A stretch of 56,751 nt of DNA from a virus (lineage: Duplodnaviria; Heunggongvirae; Uroviricota; Caudoviricetes): IMG/VR virus record IMGVR_UViG_2778261162_000006, positions 1 to 56,751 of that record; one strand, written 5' to 3'. The notes beneath the pieces were generated by a model. That model did not search any database and had not been told where the DNA came from. It saw only the letters and a program-made list of their open reading frames with translations. Shown here piece by piece: positions 1,459 through 44,201 of this stretch; the first letter of the stretch is position 1, and each line of letters starts with the position of its first letter. The translations under genes and the position numbers were made by a program.

Positions 1459-2622
1459 TTACACATCATTAGTACCTTCCTTATTTTTTGACTGGGACAA
1501 ATTTGGGACCGATGGGTTTAGGATCGAGTCTATTTGCCGTGCGTGTTCGGTAAGGTGATTAGGTGCAAGGTGAGCATATCGACGAACCATTTCGATAGAC
1601 TCCCAGCCTCCCATTTCCTGTAACACTGACAACGGGACTCCGGCTTGAACCAGCCAACTTGCCCAGGTGTGTCTCAAGTCGTGAAATCTGAAATCATCAA
1701 TACCAGCCCGTCTCAGCGCCGCTTTCCAGGCTGTGTTTGCGTCATACCGCATCTTCCTGACTGTTGGCGCTTTCGTTCCGTCTGGTTTGGTACAGCTTTC
1801 CTTGTACACAAATACCCAACGGTGATGATTCCCGATTTGTTTTTTCAATACGCGACATGCAGTATCATTCAGCGCAACGCCAATTGCGCGGTTTGATTTA
1901 CTCTCTTCCGGGTTTATCCATGCCACCCGGCGCTGCATATCTATTTGTTGCCATTCAAGGTTGATGATGTTCGAGCGTCTTAGGCCTGTTGCCAGTGCAA
2001 ATTCAACAACAGACTTTAATGGCTCCGGACATTCATCAATCAGCCTTTGTGCTTCATGGGGCTCCAGCCAGCGGATCCGTTTATTCTTTGGTTGAGGCAC
2101 TTTAATAATTGGTGCCTTATCCAGCATTTTCCATTCACGCTCTGCGGCTCTTAGTAGGGCCTTTATAAATGAAAGATGCGTAGCCTTCGTTGCAACGGAC
2201 GCTGGTTTTGGCGTGTATTCTGGAACAGGTTTCCCTTTTTTTCTGCATGCTTCTGCCCTGAGTTTCCAGTTTTCCTCATGACGCCGGTTCGTCATTTTCT
2301 GCATTGCTGAATAAATTTTTGATTCAGTAATGTCTCTTAGTTGCATTCCTGCGAAATGTTGAAGCCAGAATCCGATCCGGCTTTTGTCATCGTCCAGTGA
2401 TTTTTTATGTGCTTTCTCTTCAAGCCACCTGACACATGCTTCCTCGAACGTTATATCAGGTATTTCACCAAGTTTGCTGACCCGCCATGCTTCAGCCTTT
2501 AGCTTGTCATGGAGTTCTGTCGCCTGCCTTTTGTCCTTTGTTCCAAGAGACTGTTTAAATCTTTTACCGTTCGGCAATGTGAAACTGGCGTACCATATTT
2601 CACCTCTGCGGAAGAGTGACAT
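1459..2622 (-). CDS. Tyrosine-type phage integrase (Rac IntR-like)
   Basis: 387 aa; C-terminal HDLRHTWAS...RRYAH catalytic motifs; N-terminus [14 protein letters not shown] recalled from Rac-type integrases; adjacent to tRNA. Confidence 0.9.
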
Positions 2623-2849: not shown

Positions 2850-3154
2850 TATTTCACCTCTTGCTGTGACATTGTTGAAAAATGGATACCAGCTCGTTGC
2901 TGCCAGACGATCCAACCGAGAGTCATATCCCATGCCATGTATTCGTTATCGCCGTTTTTTGCTCTCCGACGATCTACTAAGTCACCGAAACGCTTTTCCA
3001 TGAATAATTCATAAGCTTCGCGTTCATCTGGTTCTACTTCCAGAGATAGGAGTGCGATTTCATAAGCACGGCGCTCAATATCGTCTCGCACGTCAAGGCT
3101 GCTGATACGCTCTTTAATTTCTTTAATCAGTTCTTTGTCGGTAAAAGTGGTCAT
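2849..3154 (-). CDS. Hypothetical phage protein (101 aa)
   Basis: ORF in early-left operon, acidic composition, overlapping junctions with neighbours. Confidence 0.6.
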   Translation of the reverse strand: MTTFTDKELIKEIKERISSLDVRDDIERRAYEIALLSLEVEPDEREAYELFMEKRFGDLVDRRRAKNGDNEYMAWDMTLGWIVWQQRAGIHFSTMSQQEVK

Positions 3155-3516
3155 TATGCTCCAGCCTCCGGTGCTTTTGGCATTACTGCCCAGTGAGTGA
3201 TATTGACGTTTTCAAGGTCCCCGACCTGAAATGTCCACTGCCATTCTCCGGTTTCTTTTTGTCCCCAGGTGTACCAGAGAGAACGCCAGCCAATTAGCCA
3301 GCCTTCTCCGTTAGCATCGAATAACAAAACACTTTCATTTGCTGGTGGCAGTTCAGTTGACACTGGTATTACTTTGTTTTCCTGTGCTGCACATTTAGCT
3401 TCAAGCGCATCGAATTTACGCACCAGGTATTCAGCATCTGTTTCATTTACTTTCAGATCTCGCGGTACACATCTCCCACGAAGAAACCCTTCCATTTCGA
3501 AAACATTCATGCGCAT
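3154..3516 (-). CDS. DUF551-like phage protein
   Basis: 120 aa; Trp-rich C-terminal region typical of DUF551 proteins; recollection-based. Confidence 0.6.
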   Translation of the reverse strand: MRMNVFEMEGFLRGRCVPRDLKVNETDAEYLVRKFDALEAKCAAQENKVIPVSTELPPANESVLLFDANGEGWLIGWRSLWYTWGQKETGEWQWTFQVGDLENVNITHWAVMPKAPEAGA

Positions 3517-10402: not shown

Positions 10403-10788
10403 AGCTGATCCTGCCTTTTCCGCCCAGCGTGAACACGTACTGGCGACACCCCAACAAAGGGGCGTTTGCAGGTAAGAGCCTGATAAGCGCGGCGGGGCGC
10501 AAATTCCAGAGCGCGGCGTGTGCAGCAATAGTTGAGCAGTTACGTCGTCTGCCAAAACCAACGTCGGCACCTGCTTCAGTGGAGATCGTGTTGTTTCCTC
10601 CGGATAACCGGATCCGCGATCTGGACAACTATAACAAGGCGCTGTTTGACGCCCTGACCCACGCGGGTGTGTGGGAAGACGACAGCCAGGTGAAAAGAAT
10701 GCTGGTGGAGTGGGGACCGGTTATCCCGGAAGGGAAGGTCGAGATCACTATCAGTAAGTACGAGAAAACGGCGGGTGCAGCCGCCTGA
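10399..10788 (+). CDS. rusA: RusA Holliday-junction resolvase
   Basis: 129 aa; DLDNYNKALFDAL acidic motif typical of RusA. Confidence 0.85.
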   Translation: MKLILPFPPSVNTYWRHPNKGAFAGKSLISAAGRKFQSAACAAIVEQLRRLPKPTSAPASVEIVLFPPDNRIRDLDNYNKALFDALTHAGVWEDDSQVKRMLVEWGPVIPEGKVEITISKYEKTAGAAA

Positions 10789-10807
10789 TCAAGAGGAGAA
10801 ACGAAGT

Positions 10808-11617
10808 ATGAATAATCTGATGGTCATTGATGGTATTGAAGTTCGTCGTGATGCTTATGGGCGTTACAGCCTGAACGATCTGCACAGGGCAGCCGGGGGA
10901 GAACAAAAAAAACGCCCGAAATACTGGCTCTCCAATAAGCAAACCTGTGAATTGATTGAACAAATTTTCACCGAGGGTGGAATTCCGCCTCTGGAAAAGA
11001 ATCAACCAGTTAGCGTTATTAATGGCGGAAATAACCAGGGGACGTATGTCTGCAAAGAACTGGTGTATGCCTATGCAATGTGGATCAGCCCGTCATTCCA
11101 TCTGAAGGTGATCCGTACTTTCGATATGGTAACCAGCGCACCGGAAAAATTATCCGGACAGGCTGCTGACAAGATGCAGGCTGGCGTGATCCTGCTGGAC
11201 TTTATGCGCCGGGAGTTAAACCTGTCTAACTCTTCAGTGCTTGGTGCCTGTCAGAAACTCCAGGAGGCTGTTGGCTTACCGAATCTGGCACCGCGCTATG
11301 CCATTGATGCTCCTGCTGACGCGCCTGATGGCTCAAGCCGCCCCACGCTATCATTGAGTGCACTGCTGAAGCAGTATGGTATCCGCCTGACAGCTAATCA
11401 GGCATATCACCAGATGGCGAAGCTGGGGATCGTTGAACAACGTGAACGATACAGCCGCACTGCGATTAACAACATCAAAAAATTCTGGTCGCTGACGGCG
11501 AAAGGCTGCATGTTCGGCAAGAACATCACCAGTCCCGCAAATCCGCGCGAGACGCAGCCGCATTTCTTCGAATCCCGATTCCCTGAGCTGTTAAAGCTGC
11601 TCAATACCGTTCATTGA
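10808..11617 (+). CDS. KilA-N domain protein
   Basis: Internal ATG after AGGAG; N-terminal MNNLMVIDGIEVRRDAYGRYSLNDLHRAAG resembles KilA-N/APSES domain. Confidence 0.6.
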   Translation: MNNLMVIDGIEVRRDAYGRYSLNDLHRAAGGEQKKRPKYWLSNKQTCELIEQIFTEGGIPPLEKNQPVSVINGGNNQGTYVCKELVYAYAMWISPSFHLKVIRTFDMVTSAPEKLSGQAADKMQAGVILLDFMRRELNLSNSSVLGACQKLQEAVGLPNLAPRYAIDAPADAPDGSSRPTLSLSALLKQYGIRLTANQAYHQMAKLGIVEQRERYSRTAINNIKKFWSLTAKGCMFGKNITSPANPRETQPHFFESRFPELLKLLNTVH

Positions 11618-11618
11618 G

Positions 11619-12614
11619 GTGACCGTGAGAGCACTACTGACCCCTGAAATTGCCCCGCGTATGGGGATCGTATTGTTCAGACCAGGTTCAGAGCTGATGC
11701 CCTTGTTTATGCAGGGGCGTGTCTTGCTGGAGCCTGAGCCGGAGCATTATTCATCTTTCGCCAGTGGTGCCGTTCCCGCGGCGTCACAACCGCTGGCGGA
11801 TGATCCTGCCGTTCGGGCCGTGTTCCGCAATGAGGCAGTGATCCGTCGTGCTGGTGGCGTGGAATGTCTTGAAAGCTGGTTACTTCGTGAAAAAGGCTGC
11901 CAGTGGCCTCATTCCGACTGGCACAGCGAGAACATGACCACAATGCGACACGCTCCGGGTGCAATCCGTCTGTGCTGGCACTGCGATAACCAGCTGCGCG
12001 ATCAGTTCACGGAACGGCTGGAATCAATGGCAACGGATAACTGTGCCCGCTGGGTGTTGTCTGTTGTGCGTCGGGATCTCGGTTTTGATGACAGTCACGT
12101 TGTGACAATGCCGGAACTGTGCTGGTGGCTGATTCGTAATGACCTGGCGGATGCCTTACCGGAAAGTGCAGCCCGTAAGGCACTGAGATTACCGAAGCCT
12201 GTTGTGCCGTCTGTCACCCGGGAAAGTGACCTTGTGCCTTCGGTTCCTGCCACCAGCATCATCCAGGATAAGGCGAAAAAGGTGCTGGCGCTGAAAGTGG
12301 ATCCGGAGTCGCCGGAGTCTTTTATGTTACGCCCAAAACGTCGCCGCTGGGTTAATGAAAAGTACACGCGCTGGGTTAAGACACAGCCGTGTGCATGTTG
12401 TGGAAAGCCCGCTGATGATCCCCACCACCTGATAGGTTACGGTCAGGGTGGAATGGGAACAAAAGCGCATGACCTTTTTGTGTTGCCTTTGTGCAGAAAG
12501 CATCACGACGAGCTGCATGCGGATACCGTGGCATTTGAAGAAAAGTATGGCTCCCAGCTGGAGCTGATATTTCGTTTTATCGATCGCGCGCTGGCAATTG
12601 GCGTGCTGGCCTGA
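11619..12614 (+). CDS. DUF968-like protein with HNH-like Cys/His C-terminus
   Basis: GTG start overlapping upstream stop; C-terminal CACCGKPADDPHHL...CRKHHDELH motif. Confidence 0.6.
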   Translation: MTVRALLTPEIAPRMGIVLFRPGSELMPLFMQGRVLLEPEPEHYSSFASGAVPAASQPLADDPAVRAVFRNEAVIRRAGGVECLESWLLREKGCQWPHSDWHSENMTTMRHAPGAIRLCWHCDNQLRDQFTERLESMATDNCARWVLSVVRRDLGFDDSHVVTMPELCWWLIRNDLADALPESAARKALRLPKPVVPSVTRESDLVPSVPATSIIQDKAKKVLALKVDPESPESFMLRPKRRRWVNEKYTRWVKTQPCACCGKPADDPHHLIGYGQGGMGTKAHDLFVLPLCRKHHDELHADTVAFEEKYGSQLELIFRFIDRALAIGVLA

Positions 12615-12632
12615 TTTTTTCGGAGAAAGGTG

Positions 12633-12995
12633 ATGCGTGATATTCAGATGGTTCTGGATCGTTGGGGAGCATGGGCGGCGAGTGATAGTTCAGGAGTAGA
12701 TTATTCTCCTATAGCTGCTGGGTTTAAAGGGCTTCTTCCCTATACAAGCAAAACACGTCAGGCTTGTTCAGATAGTGATGCATTAATTATTGAAGGTTGT
12801 CTTGCACGTCTAAAGCAAAAAAGACCTGATGAGCATTCGCTTCTTGTGGCACATTATTTATACAGAATATCCAAGCGTAAGATTGCAAAGGCGCGTGGAA
12901 AGGATGAGAAACTAATACGCATTGAGATACAGATGGCTGAGGGGTTTATTGATGGATGCCTTTCAATTCTGGATGTTAAACTTGAAATGGATTAG
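12633..12995 (+). CDS. Late-gene antiterminator Q
   Basis: ~120 aa; position upstream of late region; ATG after GGAGAAAGG. Confidence 0.7.
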   Translation: MRDIQMVLDRWGAWAASDSSGVDYSPIAAGFKGLLPYTSKTRQACSDSDALIIEGCLARLKQKRPDEHSLLVAHYLYRISKRKIAKARGKDEKLIRIEIQMAEGFIDGCLSILDVKLEMD

Positions 12996-13007: not shown

Positions 13008-13883
13008 TTAAGCCGGGGATGTTTCAGATTGAAGTGTTTTTTTCTTGGGCTCGTTCTTAGATGATTTTGTTTTCTTTTGACGATTGAGTTTTTTCTCTTT
13101 GCGTCTGTCAATATAATCGTCCCACCAATCAGGTTTTACTGTTGGGACGATTCTGCAAATATCAGCAATTGCAACAACAATGTTGCTCGATTGCACTCCA
13201 TCGACGTGCTCTGCCAGTGAGGGAGGAACTTGTTGGTTCATTGGATCGAGGATAAAATCCACACCCTTTATACGGGCATGTTTAGCGGCAGGAACGAAAT
13301 CAGCATCGCCAGCAATCAGGACGATCACATCAACTAGTTTCTCATGAGCAAGGATAGTTATATCCATACCAAGCTTAATATCGACGGCTTTTTGTTTATA
13401 TTCGTAGTAGAAATCGTCGTTAGTTAACTCAGACCATTGAATTTCATTACGTAATAGTTTCTTAAGAGTATGTTCTTTTATTTGCCAGTTACCGACGTTT
13501 GAAAGAATACCCATACGAAGTGCCGTTTTACGATTCTTCCTTAGCTCCTCATGAAGCTTGTTTCGTAAAACATTCGGAGCATGTGTCTTGAAGTTTTTAG
13601 TTGATGGGGTTTTGTTGTCTCCATCAGGCAAAGGATACTTAATCTGTTTATCAAGCGGCGGGCAGTCGTAATAGTAAATACGGTAAAGCTCAAGTGGTTC
13701 ACGGTCAGCGTGAGCACCATGTGGAACCTCTACATGAAATTTAACAATTCGCCAGATTATTTTAACAAGTTGTTGGCTGTCTAACTCATGCCCAGGGAAA
13801 TGTTTTCGTAGAAAGTAATCAATCCGACGGATGAAGTAGCCGCCGTCAATCAAGACTGCTGTTTTCTTCATTGAAAAACTCAC
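13008..13883 (-). CDS. NYN/PIN-like domain protein with Lys-rich C-terminal tail
   Basis: VIVLIAGDADFVPAAKHARIKG acidic motif typical of NYN/LabA-like nucleases; opposite orientation to flanking late genes. Confidence 0.65.
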   Translation of the reverse strand: MSFSMKKTAVLIDGGYFIRRIDYFLRKHFPGHELDSQQLVKIIWRIVKFHVEVPHGAHADREPLELYRIYYYDCPPLDKQIKYPLPDGDNKTPSTKNFKTHAPNVLRNKLHEELRKNRKTALRMGILSNVGNWQIKEHTLKKLLRNEIQWSELTNDDFYYEYKQKAVDIKLGMDITILAHEKLVDVIVLIAGDADFVPAAKHARIKGVDFILDPMNQQVPPSLAEHVDGVQSSNIVVAIADICRIVPTVKPDWWDDYIDRRKEKKLNRQKKTKSSKNEPKKKTLQSETSPA

Positions 13884-13962
13884 AAAAAAAGCTCAGAACC
13901 GTTGAGTAGACCCTAAATATTATCTACGAACAGTGCTGAGCTGGTGACGCAATAATTAACTA

Positions 13963-14060
13963 TTGACATTTGCGTTGTCAACAAATTTTGCACTGTTTAA
14001 ATGTAAATTTTTTCTGCTGTCAACATATAGTGTCATCTTTGGCATGTTGACACTATATAA
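13963..14060. promoter_or_regulatory. Dyad-symmetry elements with TTGACA motifs (divergent promoter/operator region)
   Basis: TTGACAtttgcgtTGTCAA; TGTCAACAtatagtgtca ... TGTTGACActatata. Confidence 0.5.
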
Positions 14061-14247
14061 ACGCTTACGCGGTCCGCAAAAATAATTGTATCATGTTAAG
14101 AGTGGTTACTTCGACTCCTTCCTTAAAACCGCAGTTGAGCGGTTTTTTTGTACCTGTAAACCTGGTGCAGTACAGTAAACACGCTGGTGGTCGTGAATAC
14201 TGGCTTTTTATCTTGCTGGCTTTTTAGACAAGAGTTATTGGTATGTC

Positions 14248-14475
14248 ATGTTAACCAGAAGGGAAAAAGACATGCTAAAACAGCAAGATATGACAGAAAC
14301 CGCCGCCGTAGTCCTTCATTTCCTACCTGCTGACAAGTGGGTAACGCCACGCATGATGACGAGAACTACCGGAGTAAGCGAAGCCCGGTGCCAGTTAATA
14401 CTGACTCAGTTAGTTCTGGCGGGTCTGGCGAAGGATAACGGCGGGTACGGGAATAAATTCAGACGCTGCCAGTAA
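14248..14475 (+). CDS. Small hypothetical protein (possible DNA-binding regulator)
   Basis: ORF; alternative ATG at 14272 has AAGGGA RBS; helix-like segment TPRMMTRTTGVSEARCQLILTQL. Confidence 0.5.
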   Translation: MLTRREKDMLKQQDMTETAAVVLHFLPADKWVTPRMMTRTTGVSEARCQLILTQLVLAGLAKDNGGYGNKFRRCQ

Positions 14476-14625
14476 TGGCGGTTTCCTGCTGTGAAAATGG
14501 GCGGCTGGTGGGTGTTGGTAGCACCTGCCAGCCATTCGCTCATGCTTACTGGTCACAAGCGAACCACGGCCCACTGCTTTAGCGCAAAAGCAGAGTGAGC
14601 CTACCAGAGTTACGCTTACTGATCC

Positions 14626-15678
14626 ATGAAAAATACTGTAAAAATAAACAGTGTTGATTTAATCAACGCTGATTGCCTGCATTTTATTCAGTCCCTGCCT
14701 GATGATTCCATTGACCTGATTGTTACCGATCCGCCGTACTTCAAGGTGAAACCCAACGGCTGGGACAATCAGTGGAAAGGGGACGAAGATTACCTTAAGT
14801 GGCTGGACCACTGTCTGGCCCAGTTCTGGCGGGTGTTAAAACCTGCCGGAAGCCTTTACCTGTTCTGTGGGCATCGCCTGGCATCTGATATTGAGATCAT
14901 GATGCGTGAACGTTTCAACGTGCTTAACCATATCATCTGGGCGAAGCCGTCCGGACGTTGGAATGGGTGTAATAAAGAAAGTCTGCGCGCATATTTTCCT
15001 GCCACAGAGCGCGTTCTGTTTGCTGAACATTACCAGGGGCCATATCGCGGCAAAAGTGACGGCTATGCGGCAAAAGAAAGGGAACTCAAACAGCACATAA
15101 TGGCACCGCTGATATCGTATTTCAGGGATGCTCGTGCCGAACTGGGTATAACGGCAAAACAAATTGCCGAAGCCACAGGTAAGAAAAATATGGTTTCCCA
15201 CTGGTTTGGTGCCAGTCAGTGGCAGTTGCCGAATGAGGCTGACTATCGGAAGTTACAGGCACTGTTTTCCCGTATAGCGGCAGAGAAGTTTCAGGAACAA
15301 CAACTGGAACAACCACACCACCAGCTGGTGGCATCTTATGATTCACTGAATCGCAAATATTCTGAATTGCTGGATGAGTTTAAATCTCTCCGGCGCTATT
15401 TCTCCGTATCAGTCTCCGTGCCTTATACCGATGTCTGGACGCATAAGCCCGTTCAGTTCTACCCGGGTAAACATCCGTGCGAGAAACCGGCGGATATGCT
15501 CCGGCAAATAATCAATGCCAGTAGTCGACCTGGTGATCTGGTTGCTGATTTCTTTATGGGATCCGGTTCCACAATAAAAGCAGCAATGGCGCTGGGGCGT
15601 CGGGCGTTAGGTGTTGAACTTGAGTCAGAGCGGTTTAATCAGACGGTGAAAGAGGTAAGTGAACTGGTGGGGAAATAA
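14626..15678 (+). CDS. DNA methyltransferase, beta-class amino-MTase (likely N6-adenine)
   Basis: Motif IV DPPY (TDPPYF) near N-terminus and motif I FFMGSGST near C-terminus. Confidence 0.85.
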   Translation: MKNTVKINSVDLINADCLHFIQSLPDDSIDLIVTDPPYFKVKPNGWDNQWKGDEDYLKWLDHCLAQFWRVLKPAGSLYLFCGHRLASDIEIMMRERFNVLNHIIWAKPSGRWNGCNKESLRAYFPATERVLFAEHYQGPYRGKSDGYAAKERELKQHIMAPLISYFRDARAELGITAKQIAEATGKKNMVSHWFGASQWQLPNEADYRKLQALFSRIAAEKFQEQQLEQPHHQLVASYDSLNRKYSELLDEFKSLRRYFSVSVSVPYTDVWTHKPVQFYPGKHPCEKPADMLRQIINASSRPGDLVADFFMGSGSTIKAAMALGRRALGVELESERFNQTVKEVSELVGK

Positions 15679-15754
15679 TTCTGGTGGCCACGTTGCGTGG
15701 CCTTTTTATTTCCAACACAGCACCCGCAAATATCGCGAGGTGAGAGATGACGAA

Positions 15755-16081
15755 ATGCCTCATAACCCAAATACCTGGCTGGACTTGGTCCAGAGCTGGT
15801 GGCGTGGAGACACACCGCTGGGTGCAGTGATTATGTCGATCGTTATGGCTGGTTTGCGCATCGCCTATTTTGGCGGTGGTGGTGGCTGGAAGCGAAAAAC
15901 GCTCGAAATTCTACTCTGTGGCGCTCTGACGCTGACTTTTGCATCCGCTCTTGAGTATGTCGGATGGCCTAAATCACTTTCTGTTGCCATTGGTGGTGGG
16001 GTGGGGCTGATCGGTGTCGATGCTATTCGTGGGGCTGCAATGCGAGTAATCGGTAACAAATTTGGTGGCTCTAAGGAGTAA
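15755..16081 (+). CDS. Holin
   Basis: ~108 aa from internal ATG; hydrophobic TM segments; directly upstream of endolysin. Confidence 0.7.
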   Translation: MPHNPNTWLDLVQSWWRGDTPLGAVIMSIVMAGLRIAYFGGGGGWKRKTLEILLCGALTLTFASALEYVGWPKSLSVAIGGGVGLIGVDAIRGAAMRVIGNKFGGSKE

Positions 16082-16084
16082 TTT

Positions 16085-16561
16085 ATGCAGGTACTAAATT
16101 CCCAGCGTAAAGCTTTCCTTGATATGGTGGCTTGGTCAGAAGGAACGGATAACGGACGACAACCGACACGTAACCACGGTTATGACGTTATTGTCGGTGG
16201 TGAACTCTTCACTGATTACTCCGATCACCCTCGCAAACTTGTCACGCTAAACCCGAAACTCAAGTCAACAGCCGCCGGACGTTACCAGCTTCTTTCACGC
16301 TGGTGGGATGCTTACCGTAAACAGCTTGGCCTGAAAGATTTTTCTCCAGAAAGCCAGGACGCTGTAGCTCTGCAGCAGATTAAAGAGCGTGGCGCTTTAC
16401 CGATGATTGACCGTGGCAATATTCGTCAGGCAATCGACCGTTGCAGCAATATTTGGGCTTCATTGCCCGGTGCTGGCTACGGTCAGTATGAACACAAGAT
16501 CGATAGTCTGATTGCCAAATTCAAAGAAGCTGGCGGGGTGGTTAATGAAACTTCGCTATAA
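16085..16561 (+). CDS. Endolysin, lambda R-like lytic transglycosylase
   Basis: Near-identity over most of its length to recalled lambda R sequence (QRKAFLDM...AWSEGTDNGRQ...YDVIVGGELFTDYSDHPRK). Confidence 0.9.
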   Translation: MQVLNSQRKAFLDMVAWSEGTDNGRQPTRNHGYDVIVGGELFTDYSDHPRKLVTLNPKLKSTAAGRYQLLSRWWDAYRKQLGLKDFSPESQDAVALQQIKERGALPMIDRGNIRQAIDRCSNIWASLPGAGYGQYEHKIDSLIAKFKEAGGVVNETSL

Positions 16562-16937
16562 GCTGGTTATTTCTGCTTTCCTCCTGACTTTATTCGGTTC
16601 TCTCGTCTGGTCAGCTAACCACTACCACAGCAAATACCAGCGCGAAAAGAAACGTGCTGATGAGGCTGTACAAAATGCCGAATCGGCAACCGCTATTACC
16701 AATAACGTCCTGCAATCACTGCAAATCGTCAATACAGTTCTGGAGGCTAACCAGCATGCAAAACAGCAGATCGCACTGGAGTCACAGAGAACCCAGGCTG
16801 ATATCAAAGTGGCTGTTGCGGATGATGATTGTGCTGTACGCCCTGTGCCTGCTGCCGCTGCTGACCGGTTGCGGAAGTACGCGAACAGTTTACGTGAGCA
16901 TTCCGAAGACTCCACTACCAGTCAGCTTGACTTCTGA
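16545..16937 (+). CDS. Rz-like i-spanin
   Basis: N-terminal TM helix then coiled-coil-like periplasmic domain; overlaps endolysin 3' end. Confidence 0.7.
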   Translation: MKLRYKLVISAFLLTLFGSLVWSANHYHSKYQREKKRADEAVQNAESATAITNNVLQSLQIVNTVLEANQHAKQQIALESQRTQADIKVAVADDDCAVRPVPAAAADRLRKYANSLREHSEDSTTSQLDF

Positions 16938-17274: not shown

Positions 17275-17781
17275 ATGAGACCAGATCAATTTTTCTATCC
17301 AGATACTTTTACCTTTAATTCATCCACCTATTATGGTCAACGTGACTCATCTAAAGGCCGATTGTATATTCCTATTGAAAGTGACTTATGCCCATTTAAT
17401 ATCGGCGATATCATTGTGCAAAAAATGGTCGACAGGGAAAGACTATTTGAAGTGCTTGATTACGAGGTGCAAATTAGTCTCGAGGTTGGTTGCCCTGGCT
17501 ACTCACATTTGGCGGTATTGATAGTGAAGGCATTGGATGTAAAAGAGAAGCCGAAGCAGATTACGACCCATTTGACGTTTAACGGTGCTATTAATGCTGG
17601 TGGTGATTTTCAAGCCGGTAATGATAATTCGATCACAAAGAATATAACCATTCAACAACTACATGATGCTATAGAGCATTGCAATGATCCAGAGGTTAAA
17701 AGCCTTTGGCAAAAGCTATTGGAAAATCCGACGTTTGCTTCAATTGCTTCAATATTGGCAAAAAGTGCTTTAGGACAGTAA
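17275..17781 (+). CDS. Hypothetical protein (168 aa), AT-rich moron between lysis and packaging genes
   Basis: ORF in AT-rich segment 17040..17800; no recognisable motifs. Confidence 0.55.
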   Translation: MRPDQFFYPDTFTFNSSTYYGQRDSSKGRLYIPIESDLCPFNIGDIIVQKMVDRERLFEVLDYEVQISLEVGCPGYSHLAVLIVKALDVKEKPKQITTHLTFNGAINAGGDFQAGNDNSITKNITIQQLHDAIEHCNDPEVKSLWQKLLENPTFASIASILAKSALGQ

Positions 17782-17838: not shown

Positions 17839-18189
17839 ATGCCACCACGAATCCCAAAATCCTGCCGCGTTCGCGGCTGCCGCCATACCACTACTGACCC
17901 GTCAGGCTACTGCGAAAGCCACAAAAGCGAAGGCTGGAAGCAATACAAGCCAGGACAATCCCGTCATCAGCGCGGCTACGGTTCGAAATGGGATGCTATC
18001 CGTGAACGTGTACTGAAACGTGACAAAGGTTTATGTCAGTTATGTCTGCGTGCCGGTGTGGTGCGTGAAGCGAAAACCGTTGACCACATCATCCCTAAAG
18101 CGCATGGCGGCACTGATGCCGACTGTAATCTGCAGAGTCTGTGCTGGCCGTGTCATAAGGCGAAGACGGCCCGTGAACGGTTGAAGTGA
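17839..18189 (+). CDS. HNH endonuclease
   Basis: Cys pairs and DHIIPKAHGG...CHKAK motif; immediately upstream of terminase. Confidence 0.85.
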   Translation: MPPRIPKSCRVRGCRHTTTDPSGYCESHKSEGWKQYKPGQSRHQRGYGSKWDAIRERVLKRDKGLCQLCLRAGVVREAKTVDHIIPKAHGGTDADCNLQSLCWPCHKAKTARERLK

Positions 18190-44073: not shown

Positions 44074-44201
44074 CTGGTTGAGTATACAGTAGTAGACTTT
44101 GAGCGACGAAAGAAAAGGCTGTGTCTAGGGTCGCTCCCGAAAATCCGTACACCTCGACGGACTGGTACAGCCACTACAGTAGAGGACGCTGAGGTGTGCG
44201 T

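Follow-up and report, generated by a model that had tools for sequence, protein, structure and literature searches.

This report concerns a solitary DNA methyltransferase gene and a structured RNA element directly upstream of it in a stretch of 56,751 nucleotides (nt) of viral DNA (Caudoviricetes; IMG/VR record IMGVR_UViG_2778261162_000006, positions 1 to 56,751), hereafter called the window. The analysed region is the late-regulatory and lysis part of a lambdoid prophage, and all positions are given in the numbering of the window. The spacer between a small open reading frame (ORF) and the methyltransferase gene holds a three-way junction followed by a hairpin. This structure is supported by covariation and, among the matches found, accompanies only methyltransferases of the M.EcoGII family, in Enterobacterales as well as in Vibrionales and Aeromonadales. 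Judged by Rfam 15 and the literature open to search, both the element and this exclusive association appear to be undescribed. The locus as a whole is probably best explained as a late-expressed M.EcoGII-family enzyme with an anti-restriction role, standing behind an RNA gate. We further propose, tentatively and at a little under even chances, that the element represents a new and widespread class of structured regulatory RNA, which would gate a toxic, non-specific DNA/RNA adenine methyltransferase, most likely as a cis-antisense RNA setting a threshold in the manner of type I toxin-antitoxin systems.

The spacer is about 150 nt long; its length, 138-153 nt, varies little between E. coli, Hafnia and Providencia, and blocks of its sequence are kept as far as PY54. 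The four helices of the element, P1-P4, were assessed in an alignment of 25 sequences from more than 12 genera, which included E. coli phages, N15, PY54 and VHML, together with sequences from Kosakonia, Citrobacter, Rosenbergiella, Ewingella, Proteus, Providencia, Tatumella, Acerihabitans, Vibrio and Aeromonas. In the raw MAFFT alignment, made with no fitting to a structure, 73.6% of the cells were paired, as compared with 28-44% in controls with slid partners; double-sided changes were seen in 20 pairs, and the covariation score was reached by none of 500 shuffles. In a second, independent set of 61 distinct sequences, compensatory changes were found in 29 of 38 pairs, and 77% of the cells were paired against 27-42% in the controls. 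The covariance model has a single match in the window, at 14487-14628, with a score of 143.8 bits.

Several other features of the spacer were considered and set aside. A coding function was rejected, as the ORF that begins at an AUG inside P1 has 3-44 codons depending on the lineage and is not conserved. A further hairpin, P5 (14598-14602 with 14612-14616), was only 55-63% paired and had no compensatory support, and it was dropped from the model; after this failure, a split Shine-Dalgarno sequence, with a GGAG about 30 nt upstream drawn near by P5, was unsupported too. A pseudoknot between the P2 loop (UUGGU) and J3/1 (ACCAA) fits the E. coli and Proteus sequences by eye and does not fit PY54, Acerihabitans or Ewingella, and is not claimed.

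A search of the window against Rfam 15 at the gathering threshold returned only a tRNA-Thr and int-alpA, both of them outside the element. A permissive search of 13850-14700 gave no plus-strand match at E<=1, and its sole match was to the Salmonella small RNA (sRNA) STnc130 on the minus strand (14117-14253); at 25.5 bits, where the gathering score is 55, with E=0.19 and a position outside the element, it is probably due to chance. Nothing was found on the element at five diverged loci at E<=0.1. Neither the sequence of the element nor an RNA motif at this site was met in the full-text searchable literature, subscription-only papers lying outside the search, and the full-text literature on RNA motifs near DNA methyltransferases and on the prophage sRNAs AgvB/AsxR and Pas does not describe it.

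The linkage of the element to the methyltransferase was established in several ways. The covariance model gives exactly one match per locus, in the orientation of the methyltransferase gene and immediately 5' of it or of a preceding Com-like ORF. A pattern scan of metagenomes, made independently of the methyltransferase, yielded 31 true matches, and in 29 of them an M.EcoGII-family ORF follows directly, its AUG being the end of the model; at the other two the contig ends at once. The IMG/VR extension comprised 99 further loci, retrieved through VHML-type and Aeromonas-type methylases; the element was present in 66 of them, in 61 distinct sequences. The first ORF after it was the methyltransferase in 46 loci, and in 12 loci of the Vibrio/Aeromonas type it was a Com-like zinc-finger ORF of 36-72 amino acids (aa), followed by the methyltransferase. 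Such a Com-like ORF stands between the element and the methyltransferase in relatives from Vibrio, Aeromonas and Cellvibrionaceae, and a CxxC...CxxC ORF occupies the same place in loci L036, L038, L007 and L047. Phage 1720a-02 and metagenome genes of the M.EcoGII type carry the same small ORF and RNA element upstream (127.5 bits).

The covariance model detected no element in the Xenorhabdus/Photorhabdus methyltransferase loci, several of which have a truncated leader with a remnant of P2 only. Most of these loci (L020-L030, L045, L053) keep the small winged-helix ORF (MLKHEDMTT...) and a leader of about 85 nt, and several methyltransferase frames look disrupted at their start. These loci may represent decay of the module.

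It is less simple to decide on which strand the element is active. Counts of G.U pairs had been considered as proof of the sense strand; they ran the opposite way, and this reopened the question. In P3, 86-92% of the cells pair on the minus strand as compared with 69-72% on the plus strand, and the plus-strand reading contains 106 A.C or C.A combinations, which become G.U on the minus strand, against 10 G.U. The pairing of P4 also leans to the minus strand. The consensus energies obtained with RNAalifold were -27 to -30 kcal/mol for the minus strand and -7 to -17 kcal/mol for the plus strand, and the mean z-score against dinucleotide shuffles was -4.3 versus -2.5, with the minus strand lower in 39 of 40 sequences.

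Among the unpaired parts, the block with the highest conservation has the plus-strand consensus AGCCTAYCA, which reads TGnTARRCT on the minus strand and thus equals an extended -10 promoter element, TGnTAnnnT. Of 103 distinct family members, 88 have this motif at the aligned position, and the invariant columns A113, G114, T117 and A118 correspond to positions -8, -7, -12 and -11 of a minus-strand -10 hexamer. A -35-like TGGATC lies at 14621-14626 on the same strand, with a spacer of 17 nt, and overlaps the start codon of the methyltransferase. A minus-strand promoter is therefore predicted at the block, with transcription starting near 14591, at the base of P4, and the RNA ending near 14494. 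A scan for the sigma-70 consensus, which needs a good -35 and omits the extended -10, found no promoter near the element on either strand.

In our opinion, the preferred reading is that the element encodes a cis-antisense sRNA some 100 nt long, opposite the 5' untranslated region (UTR) of the methyltransferase mRNA, and we consider the chances of it being so to be about even. A number of observations weigh against it. P1 and P2 show no strand preference, and the sequence of the window taken alone folds into the junction equally well on both strands (z-scores of -2.9 and -3.1), with two G.U pairs in the plus-strand form of its P2. In the Vibrio and N15 subfamilies, the spacing of the extended -10 is not exactly kept. 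No canonical terminator was found on the minus strand, where just 2-4 U follow P1. Finally, the sense strand has a conserved feature of its own, in that the 3' half of P3 is complementary to the sequence before the AUG. Both strands may matter, as in other antisense pairs.

This last feature is the basis of a different explanation, in which the element is the sense-strand 5' leader of the late mRNA and acts as a translational switch; we hold it to be possible, at clearly less than even chances. The start codon, which has no Shine-Dalgarno sequence, would be hidden as long as the pre-AUG segment pairs with the 3' half of P3. Stabilisation of the junction would set it free, be it through a metabolite in a riboswitch-like manner (for example, S-adenosylmethionine (SAM) or S-adenosylhomocysteine (SAH)), through the winged-helix protein, through the Com-like protein in Vibrio/Aeromonas phages, or kinetically in the course of transcription. 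By position, the element does belong to the late transcription unit, its model stops precisely where the first cistron begins, at the AUG (46 methyltransferase and 12 Com-like loci), and no Shine-Dalgarno sequence precedes the methyltransferase AUG in the window or in most lineages. The minimum free energy structure pairs 14551-14561 with 14613-14624; its advantage over the junction fold is only 1.5 kcal/mol in the window and 0-12 kcal/mol elsewhere. This alternative helix has moderate statistical support: it is 74.6% paired, as compared with 25-49% in slid controls, and a duplex permutation gave p ~0.002, the lineages being non-independent. The complementarity is kept with differing sequences in Vibrio (GUCAUAAG/CUUAUGAC, 8 bp including the AUG), Gilliamella (GUAUCAA/UUGAUAC), Ewingella (GAG/CUC) and Providencia (CGG/CCG), and also in N15, and the G.U pairs of P2 in the window fit the plus strand. 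On the other hand, the support for the alternative helix stems chiefly from related Enterobacterales sequences, P5 has no covariation support, and the block AGCCTAYCA has no obvious role on the sense strand; the poor pairing of P3 on the plus strand, the RNAalifold energies and the shuffle z-scores point to the minus strand as well. A bolder version of the sense leader would let it sense a ligand (SAM/SAH) or methylation itself, for instance by being methylated by the very enzyme under its control.

The element could also act on transcription, as an RNA for processive antitermination of the put type or as an attenuator, which would aid passage through the hairpin between the methyltransferase and holin genes. 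In N15, PY54, VHML and Aeromonas phages the element comes directly behind a terminator, where the late operon begins, and this agrees with such a view, as do the additional terminator-like hairpin 3' of the methyltransferase gene and the fact that no Q is annotated directly beside the module in N15-type and VHML-type phages. We nevertheless regard such a role as the least probable of the explanations considered here and as very improbable in itself. The element is tied to the methyltransferase and not to late operons generally, as every true match precedes an M.EcoGII-family gene; the lambdoid members already have Q; and the strand statistics favour the opposite strand. The put RNA of HK022 consists of two simple stem-loops, and the element has no likeness to put and no match in Rfam.

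The methyltransferase itself is, as judged from its sequence, an ordinary member of the M.EcoGII family: a beta-class N6-adenine enzyme, solitary and prophage-borne. Its class had been read correctly from the letters alone, by the order of DPPY and FxGxG. The Pfam family PF01555 (N6_N4_Mtase) matches aa 29-341 with E=1.3e-42 and 146.6 bits against a cut-off of 26.7; the DPPY motif lies at aa 35-38 and F-M-G-S-G at aa 310-314, and the order of motif IV, target recognition domain (TRD) and motif I defines the beta class. The nearest solved structures are those of beta-class methyltransferases, such as M.RsrI, M1.MboII and CcrM. The DNA segment is 98% identical to that of mEp460, 97% to those of SfV (orf47-orf48) and cdtI and 90% to those of phages carrying Shiga toxin (Stx) 2c, and it has matches in 2202 of 5426 complete E. 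coli genomes (~40%). At the protein level, the identity is 100% to vB_EcoM-720R4 and 99% to SfV orf48, with cdtI and mEp460 within 99-100%. Taken alone, the methylase is thus ordinary, being a close relative of M.EcoGII and identical or nearly so to annotated proteins of SfV, cdtI and mEp460.

M.EcoGII is a non-specific adenine methyltransferase of E. coli O104:H4, encoded in prophages of strain C227-11 (Murray et al. 2018, PMC5778455), and very similar enzymes are carried by phage 1720a-02 and other enterobacterial phages (PMC5778455). Characterised enzymes of this family modify adenine regardless of sequence context (PMC5778455, PMC11551740), their substrates being dsDNA, ssDNA and RNA. The reference sequence of M.EcoGII was taken from Supplementary Table S1 of Ochiai et al. 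2024 (PMC11551740), a machine-read text with visible reading errors, and the methyltransferase of the window is 81% identical to it over 349 aa. The closest sequence found to this reference is an M.EcoGII-type ORF of 349 aa on a metagenome contig (L174), with 338 of 350 aligned positions identical, and it served for comparison by region. The overall identity to L174 is 81.4%, with no internal indels; the N-terminal catalytic part is 90% identical and the TRD (aa 160-237) 76% (59/78). The dimer-interface segments (aa 97-110 and 116-140) have 13 of 14 and 24 of 25 residues in common, and the charged linkers are equal in length, with 19 of 25 and 15 of 22 residues identical and similar counts of K+R and D+E. 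The definitions of the helical TRD, its long charged linkers and the dimer interface come from the AlphaFold 2 (AF2) models in PMC11551740 and were compared here by sequence. Residue 179 is Q, like in M.EcoGII. The methyltransferase of 1720a-02 is 81% identical to that of the window and 93% to M.EcoGII, and the identities to the reconstructed ancestors Anc291 and SUPREM are 89% and 71%, respectively. Activity on DNA and RNA substrates is reported for both ancestors, which were largely non-sequence-specific by Nanopore direct RNA sequencing (PMC11551740).

It is very probable from these comparisons that the enzyme methylates adenine non-specifically. The target motif anticipated in the sequence-only reading would then not be expected, since adenine would be modified in any context. 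An orphan sequence-specific beta-class enzyme, with a short motif visible in the lysogen and perhaps with a C-protein-like regulator and an effect on host gene expression, seems very unlikely. In its favour, most PF01555 enzymes are site-specific, a small protein of nucleic-acid-binding fold does precede the gene, and the TRD is the most diverged folded region; an identity of 81% is no proof of the same specificity. The nearest characterised site-specific relative, M.PflMI (CCANNNNNTGG), is only ~27% identical to M.EcoGII and has no charged linkers (PMC11551740). The full-length identity of 81% to M.EcoGII, set against this ~27%, makes a site-specific identity unlikely, and the linkers that M.PflMI lacks are kept here. 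The non-specificity of Anc291 and SUPREM argues in the same direction, as do the typing of homologues from Shiga toxin-producing E. coli (STEC) as 'nonspecific' on the basis of REBASE, the absence of a motif in lysogen methylomes (PMC6602927), and an upstream winged helix that has no Xre-type helix-turn-helix (HTH), no accompanying restriction endonuclease and 150 nt with a structured RNA between it and the methyltransferase.

Two observations on the coding sequences of this family should be added. A hairpin, ACUGU-AAAAAUAA-ACAGU, is found at 14635-14652, inside codons 4-9 of the methyltransferase gene, with AUUUUUCAU after it on the minus strand. Its nucleotides are conserved from E. coli to PY54, Hafnia and Providencia, and this conservation is inseparable from that of the peptide NTVKINS. 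N15 gene 52 (NC_001901, L006 3001-4089) is annotated as starting at locus position 3235, and this start is probably misplaced downstream. Protein alignment and RNA element alike indicate the ATG at locus position 3001 as the start, which adds 78 residues, including DPPY.

The small ORF preceding the element starts at 14272 in RefSeq and phage annotations, encodes 67 aa and has a plausible Shine-Dalgarno sequence. Its frame is kept in two alleles that are 56% identical, with an invariant N-terminus and RCQLILTQL. It is a member of phrog_331 (E=2e-26) and has no matches in Pfam or NCBIfam, HTH_3 included; some homologues are named 'TrmB family transcriptional regulator' by NCBI. The AF2 model, built with 21 homologues, has a mean confidence score (pLDDT) of 88.8 and shows a single winged helix with the topology H-(bridge)-H-H-E-E. 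Foldseek matched it to Z-alpha (TM 0.84), to the N-terminal winged helices of IclR, Rrf2 and TrmB and to the mRNA-binding winged helix of SelB, all weakly (E ~1e-2). According to the model, the product is a minimal single-domain winged-helix protein, an assignment of fold class only. In N15 and PY54, respectively, gp51 and ORF59 occupy the corresponding place upstream and are its probable distant homologues (hhalign probability ~82%).

The possibly DNA-binding ORF of the sequence-only reading is thus real and has a nucleic-acid-binding fold, but its likeness to a C protein did not stand. Like the C proteins of restriction-modification systems, it is a small protein, putatively nucleic-acid-binding, encoded just 5' of a methyltransferase. 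C proteins are, in contrast, five-helix Xre-type HTH proteins of about 80 aa that go together with a restriction endonuclease and a C-box, whereas the ORF in question is a predicted winged helix with no endonuclease, no C-box before a restriction or modification gene, and 150 nt between it and the methyltransferase. Nor was a C-protein-like operator found upstream, as the inverted repeats detected lie at 13960-14060, in the Q-distal promoter region, which is not in front of a restriction or modification gene. A Com-type identity was also rejected, since the protein has two Cys residues only, a winged-helix fold and no CxxC...CxxC zinc finger.

The arrangement of the region is given in Table 1. 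As the sequence-only reading had stated, the methyltransferase stands at the head of the late operon and has no restriction partner. By gene order it is the first enzyme gene of a Q-dependent late operon, and no restriction endonuclease gene adjoins it or lies within 10 kb. The HNH gene near the terminase we take to be terminase-associated and not a partner of the methyltransferase. The tR'-like terminator in front of the module is a perfect 8-bp inverted repeat followed by a T run, and its hairpin appears in the RNA fold. The depositors of SfV and N15 annotated terminators at both equivalent sites, before the module and in the interval between methyltransferase and holin, the latter being a stem-loop terminator in the N15 annotation. 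PR' could not be placed for this type of Q, the terminator alone being clear. The order Q, terminator, small ORF, methyltransferase, (terminator) and holin is common to the window, SfV, mEp460, 1720a-02, phiP27, Hafnia phage yong2, a Providencia phage, PY54 and N15.

Table 1. Features of the methyltransferase module and its surroundings (positions in the window)
Feature	Position	Strand	Details
KilA-N	10775-11617	+	
DUF968	11619-12614	+	
Late antiterminator Q	12630-12995	+	PF06530 Phage_antitermQ, E=8.9e-52; 87.5% nt identity to cdtI Q
NYN-domain gene	13008-13883	-	
Intrinsic terminator, tR'-like, between Q and module	14125-14149	+	AAAACCGC-AGTTGA-GCGGTTTTTTT
Small ORF	14272-14475 (longest reading from 14248)	+	67 aa
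Structured RNA core	14494-14593		family statistics favour minus strand
Helix P1	14498-14502 with 14569-14573		
Helix P2	14503-14514 with 14522-14533		
Helix P3	14536-14544 with 14554-14562		
Helix P4	14574-14580 with 14587-14593		
Most conserved unpaired block	14598-14606		plus AGCCTACCA, minus TGGTAGGCT
Alternative helix of the sense strand	14613-14617, 14620-14624 with 14557-14561, 14551-14555	+	just 5' of AUG
Methyltransferase	14626-15678	+	350 aa; DPPY nt 14728-14739; FMGSG nt 15553-15567
Terminator-like hairpin, interval between methyltransferase stop and holin start	15686-15712	+	GGCCACG-TTG-CGTGGCC, then TTTTTATTTC
Holin	15755-16081	+	PF05106, E=4.5e-25
Endolysin	16085-16561	+	RefSeq annotation of 99.6% identical E. 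coli locus
Rz	16512-16937	+	RefSeq annotation of 99.6% identical E. coli locus
HNH gene	17839-18189	+	immediately 5' of small-terminase gene, like SfV orf53
Terminase	from 18306	+	

The close homologues of the enzyme are known to be silent in lysogens. M.EcoGI and M.EcoGII are unexpressed in the native lysogen, and their expression from a plasmid slows growth (PMC5778455). Two O111:H- STEC strains carry two homologues typed 'nonspecific', and single-molecule real-time (SMRT) sequencing shows no methylation due to either of them (PMC6602927). The simplest reason for such silence, suggested by the conserved gene order, is that the methyltransferase is a late gene behind Q and a terminator. Protection of phage DNA from restriction, one of the roles proposed from the sequence, is the accepted role of the family; the other, a change of host gene expression by the prophage, is unlikely, as the homologues are silent in lysogens. 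For the same reason, a comparison of the methylomes of the lysogen and a cured strain is expected to be blank, and a blank result would be no refutation of function. Family identity thus shifts the informative material from the lysogen methylome to virion DNA or the cloned gene. M.EcoGII is a much-used enzyme for chromatin footprinting and RNA labelling, and its native toxicity and silence have been noted and left unexplained. The order of Q, terminator and gene and, likewise, the conserved RNA element offer a concrete candidate explanation of this silence.

Starting from the observed family membership, gene order, RNA element and linkage, we infer the following course of events. The methyltransferase would be transcribed only on Q-dependent read-through, late in the lytic cycle, since it lies after Q and an intrinsic terminator and before the holin gene. 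Late in lytic growth, the enzyme would heavily methylate progeny phage DNA before packaging, and this DNA would withstand m6A-sensitive restriction on entering the next host. The gene would be kept silent in the lysogen, because unrestrained non-specific methylation harms the cell. The RNA element of the spacer would provide a second layer of control. In the preferred antisense form, an sRNA transcribed leftward from the extended -10 TGGTAGGCT, with a -35 region overlapping the start codon of the methyltransferase, would pair with the 5' UTR of the mRNA and set a threshold against leaky expression until Q-driven sense transcription swamps it. On either strand, the purpose is likely to be that no harmful methyltransferase is made until late transcription is fully on. 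The element may work together with the winged-helix protein or, in Vibrio/Aeromonas phages, with the Com-like protein. One published result weighs against this explanation: plasmid DNA heavily methylated by M.EcoGII transforms E. coli 10^4-10^5-fold worse (PMC5778455). Hyper-methylation has a cost too.

The module can be compared with several known systems. M.EcoGII and M.EcoGI resemble the methyltransferase of the window in their DPPY-TRD-FxGxG order, length of 349-350 aa, identity of ~81%, prophage location and solitary nature, and differ from it, as far as the sequence tells, in 19% of residues (24% in the TRD). No biochemical characterisation was found for its closest relatives, SfV orf48 and the proteins of cdtI, mEp460 and vB_EcoM-720R4. 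The same module is present in SfV (orf47-orf48), phiP27 (L23-L24), cdtI, mEp460 (gp52-gp53) and Stx2a/2c/2d phages, and in a more diverged form in N15 (gene 52), as well as in PY54 (gene 60) and VHML (ORF17). These phages share its position, after Q or a late promoter and a terminator and before the holin or stx; the window differs from them in the extra reverse-strand NYN gene between Q and the terminator. In the Stx2 phages 1720a-02 and phiP27 (L004 and L005 of our set), the module lies directly 5' of the ileZ/argO tRNA genes and stx2, and the methyltransferase and Shiga toxin would therefore share a Q-dependent late transcript.

In phages and plasmids, cis-antisense RNAs gate genes that are harmful or whose timing is critical, as in hok/sok, P22 sar-ant and lambda OOP-cII. 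The present element resembles them in that a small structured RNA seems to be encoded across from the 5' region of a toxic gene, and it has no kinship with any of them in sequence or in Rfam. The convergent 'anti-sRNAs' of the late moron site of lambdoid phages are encoded by antisense-oriented sRNA genes downstream of PR' (Tree et al. 2014, PMC4104026). They are 51-60 nt long and lie 3' of the moron, whereas the element of the window lies 5' of the methyltransferase and its minus-strand RNA is a prediction. Com-linked alpha-class non-specific adenine methyltransferases, Hin1523, Hia5 and Nma1821, occur in Mu-like prophages (Drozdz et al. 2012, PMC3299994). Like the module as explained here, com-mom of Mu is a case of a late, host-harmful gene of broad anti-restriction modification under a post-transcriptional lock, and the Com ORF has its likeness in the Vibrio, Aeromonas and Cellvibrionaceae relatives of the module. 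The window differs in having a beta-class enzyme and not an alpha-class one or Mom, a winged-helix ORF and a junction RNA instead of Com, and another type of phage and position. It appears that the logic of a late broad anti-restriction enzyme under such a lock is known from com-mom, and that the RNA element is new. If our explanation is true, the module would be a second, independent example, beside com-mom, of a broad DNA-modification enzyme of phages held in this manner. If the element is an antisense RNA or a leader switch, it would constitute a common and overlooked class of regulatory RNA; ~40% of complete E. coli genomes have matches to the module.

Some minor observations concern the surroundings of the module. 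The NYN gene encodes a predicted RNase of 291 aa that matches phrog_5783 and has weak PADLOC matches (HEC-09, NYN; E ~5e-4). Its stretch has no nucleotide matches in a collection of 50,697 phage records, and a few E. coli genomes carry it at >98% identity; the gene may be a moron or a defence gene. The divergent region between it and the late terminator contains a cluster of repeats with TTGACA/TGTCAA at 13960-14060, including a perfect 11-nt inverted repeat (ATATAGTGTCA at 14025-14035 and TGACACTATAT at 14048-14058) and an 18-nt direct repeat at 13969 and 14011, and it looks like an operator or promoter region. Two tandem copies of CTGGCTTTTTA are located at 14200-14226, just 5' of the small ORF. 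Between Rz and the HNH and terminase genes, an ORF of 168 aa (17275-17781, plus strand) with no Pfam or PADLOC matches lies in a low-GC island (~40% against 55% in the flanks) and is likely a moron.

At the start of the prophage, the tRNA-Thr (CGU) gene at 1369-1444 directly adjoins the tyrosine integrase gene (1459-2622, minus strand), and this junction is probably the left attachment site. At the other side, the GC content falls to 33-48% beyond ~36 kb, and the int-alpA RNA at 44118-44185 on the plus strand, with 45.5 bits, exceeds its gathering score; together these suggest a second mobile element, P4-like or an integrase-alpA island, after the prophage.

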